Made by a program: the position numbers and the translations under genes. DNA of 64,000 bases from Acidobacteriota bacterium. Lineage in GTDB: Bacteria > Actinomycetota > Acidimicrobiia > Spongiisociales > UBA11373. The notes below the pieces were generated by a model. The model was not told the DNA's origin, searched no databases, and was given only the letters and a program-made list of their open reading frames with translations. Positions 4,295 to 6,717 of this stretch are shown piece after piece; the first letter of the stretch is position 1; each line of letters begins with the position of its first letter. The stretch spans positions 156-64,155 of the forward strand of contig JACZWZ010000001.1 of the NCBI GenBank assembly GCA_022571885.1, written 5' to 3'.

Positions 4295-4452
4295 CCGCTT
4301 GCTGAGGTGCGGTCACGGGCAAGCCCCAACATCCTGTAGCCGAACCAACCCTGAGTATCGAATCACCTGCGGAGGGCGTGGCAACACGCGCGTCACGCCC
4401 CCACGAGTCATCGTCAATACCAGGGAGCGTGTCATCGCTCAACACGCCACAA

Positions 4453-4724
4453 CCCTTTCAGCATGGTGTCTCAGCAAAGTCTCAGCAATCCTTTCAAGCA
4501 CCGGCAGCGACCGCTCACCTCTAGCTACCCAGGGCCTCGACGATGCAGCCATAGGCGCACGATGAACTGCCACCCTTTCAACAGAGTCTCAGCAACCCTT
4601 TCAAACACCCTTGCAGCGGGCCAGCTCAGTCCGGAACAAACACCAGACCCAGCGCCGCATTAGTCAACAATCTCAGAACTCCTGCGTCGGCGCCGGCAAC
4701 AGGATGAGATCGTGTTGAAAGGGT
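4453..4724. promoter_or_regulatory. cluster of short direct and inverted repeats (CCTTTCARMCA and GTCTCAGCAA motifs) upstream of xis; candidate Int/Xis arm-type sites or xis promoter
   Basis: Read directly: ccctttcagca (4453), gtctcagcaa x2, cctttcaagca (4490), ccctttcaaca (4572), gtctcagcaa, ccctttcaaaca (4596), inverted tgttgaaaggg (4713) about 20 nt before the xis ATG. Confidence 0.4.
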
Positions 4725-4743
4725 CAGGACGCACGATCAGCAC

Positions 4744-4971
4744 ATGGATCAGCTCGACCACCTCCTGACCGCCCAGGACCTCGCGGCCTACCTCGACGTG
4801 CCCCTGACAACGCTGTACGCGTGGCGATACCGTGGAGAGGGTCCGGCTGGCTTTCGCGTCGGCAAGCACCTCCGGTATAGACGGAGTGACGTGGAACAGT
4901 GGATCCGAGAACGCGTCGGAGAGTCACAGCCCAATCGCCGACGACCGCCTTCTGCGCTGGACCATCCTTGA
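4744..4971 (+). CDS. xis: excisionase / HTH_17-family DNA-binding protein
   Basis: 75 aa; LTAQDLAAYLDVPLTTLYAWRYRGEGPAGFRVGKHLRYRRSDVEQWI matches excisionase-type winged HTH; sits directly upstream of the integrase. Confidence 0.75.
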   Translation: MDQLDHLLTAQDLAAYLDVPLTTLYAWRYRGEGPAGFRVGKHLRYRRSDVEQWIRERVGESQPNRRRPPSALDHP

Positions 4972-5038
4972 GAGCCACCGGTAGAGTCGCCGCCAAGGTG
5001 CCGACGTTACGGCAACCCATCACGCGGGGGGAAGCGCT

Positions 5039-6205
5039 ATGGCCAGCATTCAGAAACGACACACCGCGAGCAGTGAGATTCGTTGGGATGTCCGCTACCG
5101 GGACCCCGATCAGCGCCACAGGACGAGGACCTTTCATCGCAAGGTCGATGCACAGAAGTTCGCCAACCTTGTGGAGGCCGATCTCGCCCGAGGCGAATGG
5201 CTCGACCCTGGACTCGGCAAGGAAACCTTCGGAGAGTGGGCACGTCGCTGGCAGTCAACCATCGCGGGCCTCGCGCCCAAGACTCGGGAAAGCTACGAGT
5301 CGATCCTCCGCCGCCACCTGTTGCCCAGGTTTGAGAACACGCCGGTGTCGCGCATCGATCATCCGATGGTCCTGGCACTGATGGCTGAGCTCACCTCCAC
5401 CGGGTCCGGCGCAGGCACAGTACGAAACGTACGAGACGTGCTTCGCCTCATCCTCGAGCTGACGCGACGTTCAGGTGCTATTCGGACCAATCCCGTCGAA
5501 GGAGCGAAGGTCCCGAAGAAACCGCCCGCCCAAATGGTGTTCTTGAACGCCGATCAGATCATGACCCTCGCGCAGGAAGTAACCAACCCTCCGATCAGGA
5601 GGGGCGCCGGCGAACACCGACGCGCTGCTTATCCGGAGCGAGGACTCCTCGTGCGCTTTGCCGGCTTCACTGGTCTCCGCTCGGGCGAGATCGTGGCCCT
5701 GCGAGCCGAGGCCATCGATTTGATGCGAGGCCGCGTCCAGGTCCTGGCTTCAGCCAGCGAGGCCTACGGCAAACTCCAATTCGGGCCCCCGAAGACGTAC
5801 CAACGCCGGTCGGTGCCCCTCCCGAAGACTCTTCTCGACGAGTTGACGACCCACCTTGCAAGCAAGGACTCCTCGGACTTCGTGTTCGTGTCGGCGAGGG
5901 GTGGCCCGCTCCGGCACTCAAACTTCTACGCGCGGCACTTCAAACCGGCGGCGATCCGATTGGGCCTGCCACAGACAACCCGCTTTCACGACCTCCGACA
6001 CAGCTACGCGGCGATGCTCATCGCGGAAAACGCCCATCCCAGAGCCATCATGGAACGCCTCGGCCACAGCACGATCCAGGTCACCCTCGGTACGTACGGG
6101 CATCTGTTCCCAAGCCTCGAGGCTTCGCTGACCGAGGCCCTCGACGACGTGTACCGAGGAGCCAAGCCGACGCCGCCAGCCAAGGTGCGAGAAATCAAAG
6201 GCTAA
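5039..6205 (+). CDS. int: tyrosine-type site-specific recombinase/integrase (phage/ICE type with N-terminal arm-binding domain)
   Basis: N-terminus SIQKRHTASSEIRWDVRYRDPDQRHRTRTFHRKVDAQKFANLVEADLARGEWLDP is typical of actinobacterial element integrases; C-terminal catalytic R...HDLRHSYAAMLIAENAHPRAIMERLGHSTIQVTLGTYGHLF (His-x-x-Arg and Tyr). Confidence 0.9.
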   Translation: MASIQKRHTASSEIRWDVRYRDPDQRHRTRTFHRKVDAQKFANLVEADLARGEWLDPGLGKETFGEWARRWQSTIAGLAPKTRESYESILRRHLLPRFENTPVSRIDHPMVLALMAELTSTGSGAGTVRNVRDVLRLILELTRRSGAIRTNPVEGAKVPKKPPAQMVFLNADQIMTLAQEVTNPPIRRGAGEHRRAAYPERGLLVRFAGFTGLRSGEIVALRAEAIDLMRGRVQVLASASEAYGKLQFGPPKTYQRRSVPLPKTLLDELTTHLASKDSSDFVFVSARGGPLRHSNFYARHFKPAAIRLGLPQTTRFHDLRHSYAAMLIAENAHPRAIMERLGHSTIQVTLGTYGHLFPSLEASLTEALDDVYRGAKPTPPAKVREIKG

Positions 6206-6612
6206 TCAGTCACCCACTCATGGTCGGTAGGTGATCGATGCATTCGATGCAGGGTGCGAAAAGACCCGCTGCGTAGCATGTCGATAGCCGATCAGGAGCA
6301 ACCAGGATGGCCGAATCCCCCCGGACCCTGGTTGAGGACCTAGCCGGAAGTTTCAACCAGACCGTCCTCGACCATGACACCCTCACGAGCCACAGTGTCC
6401 TCGATGCCCTTGCGGGTCCCCCATCTCTCTGGTAGGGGATCCGGTCTCAGACAGCACACATACGTATCACGAATAACTTCAAGAAAGACCGGAACAGCGA
6501 CCAAAACCTGGCGAGGCATGACTCATCAGCGCAACGGCGGGTCAGTCGGCCCGCGCCATGGACGCGCGATGGAGCCTCTTCGCAGCTCGGAGCAGGACAA
6601 CCCAGAACTCCG

Positions 6613-6640
6613 AAAACCCTTGCGGTACAAGGGTTTTCGT
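6613..6640. terminator. hairpin between int and tRNA-Met (cgaaaacccttg cggt acaagggttttcg), possible bidirectional terminator
   Basis: Perfect 12-bp inverted repeat read directly, immediately 3' of the tRNA (minus strand) and downstream of int. Confidence 0.5.
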
Positions 6641-6643
6641 TCG

Positions 6644-6717
6644 TAGCGGGGGCGGGATTTGAACCCGCGACCTTCGGGTTATGAGCCCGACGAGCTACCA
6701 GACTGCTCCACCCCGCG
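6644..6717 (-). tRNA. metU: tRNA-Met (CAU), initiator-type
   Basis: Manual fold of the reverse complement: acceptor CGCGGGG/CCCCGCU with 1:72 mismatch, D-stem with A11:U24, anticodon stem with three consecutive G:C pairs, loop CUCAUAA (anticodon CAU), T-arm GCGGG-TTCAAAT-CCCGC, discriminator A; CCA not encoded. Confidence 0.9.

Follow-up and report, generated by a model that had tools for sequence, protein, structure and literature searches.

What is the DNA that lies to the left of the initiator tRNA-Met gene in the genome of an uncultured member of the Acidimicrobiia, and what are the repeats within it for? The question arises from a stretch of 64,000 nucleotides (nt), called the window below, which was deposited under the name Acidobacteriota bacterium (GenBank assembly GCA_022571885.1, contig JACZWZ010000001.1, positions 156 to 64,155 of the forward strand). 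Islands or integrative and conjugative elements (ICEs) that use lambda-type integrases to enter tRNA genes cross over between the anticodon loop and the tRNA 3′ end, as is known for pSAM2 and mycobacteriophage L5. Here, positions 1-6685 of the window are probably the right-hand end of a large integrative element, which sits in the 3′ half of the initiator tRNA (tRNA-fMet) gene, bears a Tad-like gene cluster as its cargo and has a repeat array that is likely an operator. The element is of a known kind, a tRNA-fMet island, in an unstudied lineage; its conserved cargo is unusual and its conserved array is well defined. The features at the tRNA end are the following.

6643..6717, minus strand: initiator tRNA-Met (CAT), the integration target (ARAGORN; Rfam tRNA, 65.6 bits)
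6641..6685: putative attachment (att) identity segment between the anticodon loop and the tRNA 3′ end, placed by the extra copies in locus L089, the synteny break and the precedent of locus L029
5039..6205, plus strand: int, tyrosine integrase gene, 388 amino acids, intact, the terminal gene (Pfam; catalytic residues)
4744..4971, plus strand: xis, excisionase-family winged-helix gene, 75 amino acids (HTH_17; TIGR01764; weak PDB matches to RdfS and AlpA)

The tRNA-Met gene is the sole tRNA gene in the window, and its 3′ end faces left. It is marked as an initiator by the C1 x U72 mismatch and by three G-C pairs (GGG/CCC) closing the anticodon stem, and Rfam found nothing in the window except this tRNA. 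The int gene adjoins the tRNA 3′ end (stop codon at 6205, tRNA 3′ end at 6643), and the same arrangement is found in L009 and many other relatives (loci fetched from public genomes are designated by L and a number). Both xis and int are transcribed toward the tRNA 3′ end; xis ends 67 nt upstream of int on the same strand and forms an operon with it. The integrase matched PF00589 at 3.2e-23 and 82.8 bits (cut-off 27.1), and the SAM-like and central domains were matched as well. It has the R-K-H-R-H-Y catalytic set of tyrosine recombinases, and these residues (R214, K252, H317, R320, H343 and Y353) are invariant across ten relatives (alignment A1). A conserved segment of ~60 amino acids, which may be an arm-binding domain like that of heterobivalent lambda-type integrases, precedes the SAM-like domain; PF26003 (Integrase_N_phage) is on record for close relatives and was not reported for the integrase of the window at E <= 0.01. 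Xis belongs by sequence to the excisionase-family winged helix-turn-helix proteins, matching HTH_17 at 1.2e-15 and 57.9 bits (cut-off 27) and TIGR01764 'excise' at 30.9 bits (cut-off 28.8). The identities of these genes are established. From its family membership and gene position, the 75-residue protein is a predicted excisionase, which would be co-transcribed with int and would direct excision.

The boundary of the element becomes visible by comparison with three genomes (L089, L090 and L091), which were chosen because a LuxR-type gene and, after it, a tad operon lie on their right, as in the window. This right flank is 81-90% identical to the window at the nucleotide level, and the same tRNA-fMet gene is found at the same position. 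The three genomes begin to resemble the window at 6631-6640, the tRNA 3′ end; leftward of the tRNA gene, no two of the window, L089, L090 and L091 are related. The synteny break at the tRNA gene is therefore established. The other comparison is with L009, whose integrase is 77% identical to that of the window and which has an identical tRNA-fMet gene in a different genomic context. Conservation between L009 and the window runs from ~6540 through the tRNA gene and ends 5 nt beyond the tRNA 5′ end. Taken together, the two comparisons mean that the DNA left of the tRNA gene tracks the integrase and the DNA right of it tracks the host. An earlier reading of this locus, made from the letters of the sequence alone and called here the sequence-only reading, had proposed that int and xis form a terminal integration and excision module at the 3′ end of tRNA-fMet, and the synteny break, the comparison with L009 and the intactness of both genes bear this out. 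The same reading held that a lack of empty-site alleles and a domesticated int would speak against it; what was found are relatives with the same right-hand neighbours that lack int, xis and the left cluster. Its label for the junction, attR, was right as to the location, which is tRNA-proximal and int-proximal, but the usual convention names such a junction attL.

A pair of bases in the T-stem hints at where the crossover took place. The paired G at 6654 and C at 6666 are common to the window and L009 only, the latter having an integrase of the same clade; A and T stand at these positions in L089, L090 and L091. Replacement of the tRNA gene's 3′ half by the element would give just this pattern and would put the crossover between 6667 and ~6685; the present 3′ half was probably contributed by the element. 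On this scheme the integrase would have recombined the chromosomal tRNA gene with an element-borne tRNA segment, reaching from the 3′ end to the anticodon loop, and the displaced native 3′ half, whose A/T version reads GTAGCGGGGGCAGGATTTGAACCTGCGACCTTCGGGTTATGAG, should sit at the far end of the element outside the window. The sequence-only reading had noticed that the window has the tRNA 3′ end only once, and a 23-mer confirmed this, as it had no other match there at up to three mismatches; exact direct matches of the tRNA end to the left do not exceed 10 nt, a length expected by chance. At its left, the island extends beyond the window start. Direct repeats of the tRNA 3′ segment are established in relatives: at this same tRNA, L089 has three more copies, likewise direct, of the stretch between anticodon loop and tRNA 3′ end (50-59 nt, 90-96% identity), and in the family member L029 int is flanked by a 50-nt exact att repeat of tRNA-Thr. 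Other integrase relatives end 14-210 nt from the 3′ ends of tRNA genes for Pro, Ala, Arg, Asp, Val, Cys and Asn. The extra copies in L089 are spaced ~2.8-2.9 kb apart and bound, at 829-9603, three tandem integrase-less islets of that length, each with its ~50-nt copy of the tRNA-fMet 3′ half; a 673-residue protein in these islets is a weak match to the MADS defence protein mad2.

How far the element extends to the left depends on the genes next to xis, all of which are read leftward.

3255..4322, minus strand: p396, first gene of the leftward operon (355 amino acids by public call; gene call in L002; no Pfam or NCBIfam match)
2401..3297, minus strand: p298, Cys/Trp-rich, cluster-specific (60-75% identical in ~30 loci)
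1698..2399, minus strand: CpaB/RcpC-like protein with a SAF domain (Pfam SAF, 1.3e-6; TIGR03177, weak)
919..1701, minus strand: p260, CpaE/TadZ-like ParA-type protein (TIGR03815, weak; conserved synteny)
1..922, minus strand: 5′ part of a TadA-like T2SSE ATPase gene, running off the window start (gene calls in L001 and L002)

The p396 protein has 355-396 amino acids, and homologues of its gene come after the array in all cluster loci. The TadA-like fragment is 80% identical in translation to the T2SSE gene of L006. In relatives the cluster goes on with TadB/C, Flp, two TadE, TadG and a large LysM protein. The Tad/Flp gene set is thus represented in the window by its SAF/CpaB-, CpaE- and TadA-like members and in relatives by the full set, and synteny shows the conserved cargo to be a complete Tad/Flp-pilus-like cluster, transcribed leftward. 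The cluster adjoins xis-int in L005, L006-8, L092, L094/L105, L101 and L103, and adjoins an integrase or an integrase remnant in L010 and L093, where xis was not detected; the outer flanks are unrelated each time. Between L101 and L105, homology begins precisely where int has its stop codon. The L092 locus has the cluster and xis beside an integrase of 36% identity that ends 14 nt from a tRNA-Asn gene; no att repeat of this tRNA-Asn was found within 20.8 kb, and an ArdC-N/Toprim primase gene is present beyond the LysM gene. Since the linkage of cluster, xis and int recurs in independent contigs with differing flanks, the left Tad operon is cargo and the window holds the last 6.6 kb of the element. 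This linkage of the cluster with swappable recombinases is established. The sequence-only reading had left a choice between a remnant and an element larger than 6.6 kb that carries the left Tad operon, and the comparative data favour the latter: the element has a length of at least 6.6 kb in the window and of more than 20 kb in one relative. A second, chromosomal tad operon lies to the right of the tRNA gene at 7700-15451 (Flp, TadE, TadG, CpaB, CpaE, TadA, a VWA-TadB fusion and TadC); its ATPase is only ~35% identical to that of the island, and two Tad systems flank one tRNA gene.

Between the leftward operon and xis lies the repeat array.

4452..4500, plus strand: block I, four phased half-sites, beside the start of the leftward operon (repeats; conserved block in relatives)
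4572..4609, plus strand: block II (ACCCTTTCAACAGAGTCTCAGCAACCCTTTCAAACACC), three phased half-sites, near-invariant across elements with diverged spacers
4705..4724, minus strand: inverted unit U3, ending 19 nt before the xis ATG, its position kept in relatives where found

The array has two head-to-tail runs with a period of 11-13 nt, in which the motifs GTCTCAGCAA and CCTTTCA share the core T(C/T/G)TCA(A/G). On the plus strand this core is found at 4456, 4469, 4480 and 4492 (spacings 13, 11 and 12), then after 84 nt at 4576, 4587 and 4599 (spacings 11 and 12), and after another 72 nt at 4671, with an inverted copy at 4715. The eight copies at 4456-4671 are the densest cluster in the window, whose whole plus strand has 42. 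Three copies of GTCTCAGCAA, all within 4468-4595, compare with 0.14 expected, and five copies of CCTTTCA within 4454-4722 compare with 4.7 expected over the whole 64 kb. The sequence-only reading had described an iterated CCTTTCARMCA; the repeats are real, but the motif was slightly miswritten and this degenerate pattern matches exactly once. Part of block II and U3 form an inverted repeat of 20 nt (4572-4591 / 4705-4724) with 85% complementarity. The same architecture recurs in ~20 loci, whose spacers between the blocks have diverged beyond alignment: block I is followed by block II 95-120 nt on, U3 comes 143-146 nt after the block II start (four relatives measured), and the inverted unit stands ~20 nt before the first rightward ATG. 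Relatives in which U3 was found have the start of its motif 44-47 nt ahead of a common reference point at the rightward start codon. The sharply conserved unit is CCCTnTCAnCAGAGTnTCA; each element has this 19-nt unit at a single place, and among 1.58 Mb of fetched loci it is confined to cluster loci and L025; no further operators of this kind were found elsewhere in the elements. Both the conservation and the phasing of the array are established. Several interruptions of the region may be mentioned: one public assembly has a 100-N scaffold gap over window positions 4531-4742, L005 has an insertion sequence (IS) transposase between block II and U3 that splits the control region (8331-9527), and L099 has one beyond xis (2815-3720).

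The repeats had been taken by the sequence-only reading for arm-type sites of Int and Xis. Arm sites are expected to lie on both arms, at most a few hundred bp from the core, and to be specific to, and co-vary with, their cognate integrase. The array lies 1.9-2.2 kb from the tRNA core, and the int-proximal arm (6206-6642) has no copy of it. In some loci it adjoins the window-type integrase, the L025-type integrase (48%) or the one at tRNA-Asn (36%), and in others a large serine recombinase (L097/98), the MobF relaxase of L118, the LTD/GmrSD_C protein of L122 or an IS element. Its architecture is the same beside tyrosine integrases of only 36-48% identity. Finally, L009 has an Int N-terminus near-identical to that of the window and is also at tRNA-fMet, yet the array is absent from it. 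Because of the distance, the recurring architecture, the varied neighbours and the absence from L009, the repeats at 4452-4724 are not arm sites. In L097/L098 (L098 2084-3775), the Tad-like cluster and the array are followed by a truncated xis and the large serine recombinase of 563 amino acids.

What, then, is the array? Judged from its sequence conservation, it is a family-wide cis-element in what appears to be the divergent control region between the Tad-like operon and xis-int, and most likely it is an operator made of helically phased TnTCA half-sites. Two head-to-tail runs of such half-sites, one helical turn apart, and an inverted unit ~20 nt before the rightward start codon could be covered by a DNA-binding protein filament, which would co-regulate both divergent operons. 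It is known that winged-helix recombination directionality factors (RDFs) and BldC bind DNA head-to-tail, and that an RDF occupies its own promoter, with one site ~170 bp upstream and another at the ribosome-binding site or start codon (PMC11963761). The operator reading is favoured because the head-to-tail sites at ~150-190 bp upstream and at the start codon match this behaviour of winged-helix RDFs and BldC; blocks II and U3 have the same layout. As with RdfS of ICEMlSymR7A, BldC and the Xis proteins of lambda and L5 (PMC11963761), a small excisionase-family winged-helix protein is encoded beside the integrase, and the repeats are head-to-tail and one turn apart. RdfS differs in being without a clear consensus motif (PMC11963761), whereas the unit here is sharply conserved. 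A further difference from RDF systems is that the array persists in relatives without a nearby xis, and the binder may thus not be Xis. The N-terminal domain of Int was rejected as the binder, as L009 has the same domain and a GGGRAC x6 repeat instead. This different array of L009, with a period of 11-12 nt, lies upstream of xis at 339-401. Such phased arrays may commonly precede xis and vary in their specificity.

Several points weigh against the reading given here. The window lacks the far att copy, and the same strain's public contigs, from two independent assemblies, both stop within the TadA-like gene, 155 nt to the left of where the window begins; the island's extent and intactness in this genome are thus presumptive. 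Low coverage, strain variation or a repeat may have caused these contig ends and the scaffold gap at 4531-4742. No pristine empty site was found among the related genomes, each of which has a different occupant or a scar; L090, for example, is a scar and not a clean empty site, because it has a recombinase fragment 1.4 kb from the tRNA gene. A circular junction was not observed. The argument from the T-arm stands on two linked bases, and L006-8 and L101/L105 have no tRNA gene beside int, so that tRNA use is not family-wide. As for the operator, a scan of the array region for a promoter consensus found none. The residues of the Xis recognition helix (PLTT, PVAT or PIKT) show no co-variation with the one motif base that varies, and the array is retained in L118 and L122, where 21 kb contain no xis. 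Since these two loci have the array without xis, Xis is not the sole binder; with the lack of co-variation added, Xis was rejected as the specific binder.

A different function for the array has to be weighed, namely that 4452-4724 is an origin of transfer (oriT), the relaxosome assembly site of a conjugative or mobilizable family, with an accessory protein on the half-sites, a nick in or beside block II, and xis-int merely abutting it. This is less likely than an operator but a serious alternative because of L118, where a MobF relaxase of 1059 amino acids (TrwC, 2.6e-73, plus AAA_30) starts ~120 nt from the array in the usual position of xis-int; intergenic direct and inverted repeats beside a relaxase gene are also what MobF (TrwC/TraI) oriTs have. 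The array is found at one place per element, intergenic between divergent operons and better conserved than its flanks. L092 has the ArdC-N/Toprim primase within the same element, L010 has an M23/SLT hydrolase adjoining the cluster, and L025 has the array and xis-int only, without a Tad cluster, like an integrative mobilizable element. The GT(C/G)T core of the array unit may resemble MobF nick sites. On the other hand, the window and most relatives show neither a relaxase nor a coupling protein or VirB4. Inspection by eye, with no fold run, showed no tight hairpin just 5′ of the candidate nick site as in MobF oriTs, the inverted unit is 113 nt away from block II, and the fixed distance from U3 to the start codon suits an operator better. 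In L118 the relaxase gene (5279-8458, with TrwC and an AAA_30 helicase part) stands beside the array and the Tad-like cluster, and DUF4007 and cysteine-desulfurase genes are present further out.

A broader and more doubtful proposal is that the Tad-like cluster, the array and the swappable recombinases make up an undescribed family of self-transmissible elements of Acidimicrobiia, in which the Tad/Flp machine, in place of a VirB4-type T4SS or a TraB pump, would serve mating or DNA transfer and the array would be an oriT or a master control site. From the gene set of ICEs, the MobF relaxase of L118 and the primase of L092 were found, and the rest of the element of the window lies outside its contig; no VirB4, VirD4 or FtsK-like gene was seen in any fetched locus. 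A literature search on Tad-based conjugation in Actinobacteria turned up nothing relevant. If the Tad-like machine did serve transfer, it would be a new kind of conjugation apparatus.

It is improbable that int and xis are a stranded remnant and that the Tad-like cluster to their left is normal chromosomal DNA which neighbours a tRNA hot spot by chance. The unseen far att site would fit this, as would the decayed copies among relatives (a truncated int in L093, IS insertions in L005, an int fragment in L090), the cluster loci of L118 and L122 without an integrase within 9 kb, and the small open reading frame (ORF) after int, which is shortened in the window. Against it, int and xis are intact with all catalytic residues present, the cluster is absent from the left of the tRNA gene in the three closest genomes, and it is found beside at least four types of recombinase with unrelated outer flanks. 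The L093 locus carries a deletion that fused its truncated int to a truncated p396.

Far less probable is a mini-element of 2.2 kb, composed of xis-int and the repeats, with the repeats as Int arm-type and/or Xis sites and the repeat zone as the far arm. The repeats are direct and inverted and adjoin xis, Xis-type proteins do bind phased direct repeats, and L025 has the array and xis-int with unrelated genes further left. The distance of the array from the core and the lack of a copy in the int-proximal arm, given above, speak against it, as do its absence from L009 and its unchanged state beside 36-48% identical integrases, a serine recombinase, a relaxase and an unrelated gene. The mini-element was rejected for two reasons: 4250-4745 and 6500-6725, when compared, shared neither an att-like repeat nor any significant local similarity, and int is accompanied by the left cluster.

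The last candidate, a 113-bp invertible promoter bounded by the inverted repeat 4572-4591 / 4705-4724 and flipped by the tyrosine recombinase to phase-vary the Tad-like operon, could draw on L025 (the same 113-nt spacing, with an inverted repeat of 32 nt and 97% complementarity) and on the scaffold gap at 4531-4742 together with a contig starting at 4743, but it is hardly credible, as the inverted repeat is kept where the adjoining recombinase differs in type or is absent, the asymmetric CCCTCCAA box is always by block II and never by U3 in the aligned relatives carrying it, with no flipped form found, the gapped scaffold and the 4743 contig have identical alignment statistics over 11,463 nt and were taken as one assembly (~5x coverage by contig name), and two further contigs, L002 and L004, have the inner segment in the same orientation and extend over the right arm, L002 spanning the whole interval. 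The inverted junction of the flipped form would read CTGCCACCCTTTCAACACGATCTC.

The tRNA-fMet island can be set beside known systems. It shares with elements of the pSAM2 and L5 type the xis-int operon directed toward att, the terminal int, the probable restoration of the tRNA 3′ half by the element, the putative att identity segment of ~45-50 nt, and a tRNA hot spot with different or tandem islands. It differs from them in the initiator tRNA-Met target and the uncultured Acidimicrobiia host. It also differs from actinomycete ICEs in its cargo, a Tad-like cluster instead of their Rep/TraB (FtsK-like) module, and in having no replication or transfer genes visible in the window. The tad locus is known as the 'widespread colonization island', and type IVb pilus clusters ride on ICEs and plasmids, such as PAPI-1 and R64 with its thin pilus. 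Here too a full Flp/Tad set (CpaB, CpaE/TadZ-like, TadA, TadB/C, Flp, two TadE and TadG) moves with an integrase; unlike in known tad loci, there are the additional family-less p396 and p298 and the LysM protein of ~1100 amino acids, and the window has, besides the island cluster, a chromosomal tad operon paralogous to it. The island cluster may serve adhesion or mating. The initiator tRNA gene is thus an active integration hot spot in a poorly known uncultured class of actinobacteria, where a whole Tad-pilus-like machine has been moved among genomes by swappable recombinase modules, and the phased conserved array provides a concrete cis-element, a candidate operator or transfer origin.

The segment between int and the tRNA gene contains the remaining features.

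6510..6642: int-proximal arm of the element (conserved with L009 from ~6540)
6554..6573, plus strand: tandem CGC(C/G)ATGGA x2, 11-nt period, candidate Int arm-type sites (position; tandem kept in L009)
6611..6639: perfect 12-bp hairpin directly after the tRNA 3′ end (inverted repeat I18)
6307..6435, plus strand: small acidic ORF after int, 42 amino acids (called in L001-L003; homologous to L007 8132-8344)

The tandem CGC(C/G)ATGGA lies 70-90 nt from the tRNA end and appears to be a better candidate for the true arm sites of Int than the array at 4452-4724. As the single motif is not enriched in the window (5 found, 2.9 expected), the case for it as an arm site rests on position and conservation. 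The hairpin is likely a terminator supplied by the element, and L009 keeps its stem by a compensatory change from CCCTTG/CAAGGG to CCGTTG/CAACGG. The present tRNA 3′ half, this hairpin and ~100 nt beyond it would all be element-derived. The small acidic ORF has 42 amino acids in the window and 70 in relatives, and DNA similarity runs on out of frame to ~6510; a frameshift has likely shortened an accessory gene.

Two minor observations concern the surroundings of related integrases. In L012 (3887-5632), an integrase 59% identical to that of the window lies downstream of tRNA-fMet and is transcribed away from it, opposite to the window, with Tad-like genes 8 kb beyond. Defence-like genes are often found near or just outside the integrases of relatives, including an OLD/Gabija-type ATPase, a type I restriction R subunit and ThiF/E1-like proteins (L010 5134-7158, L011 12054-14960, L116 5026-7156 and L092 16372-17445).

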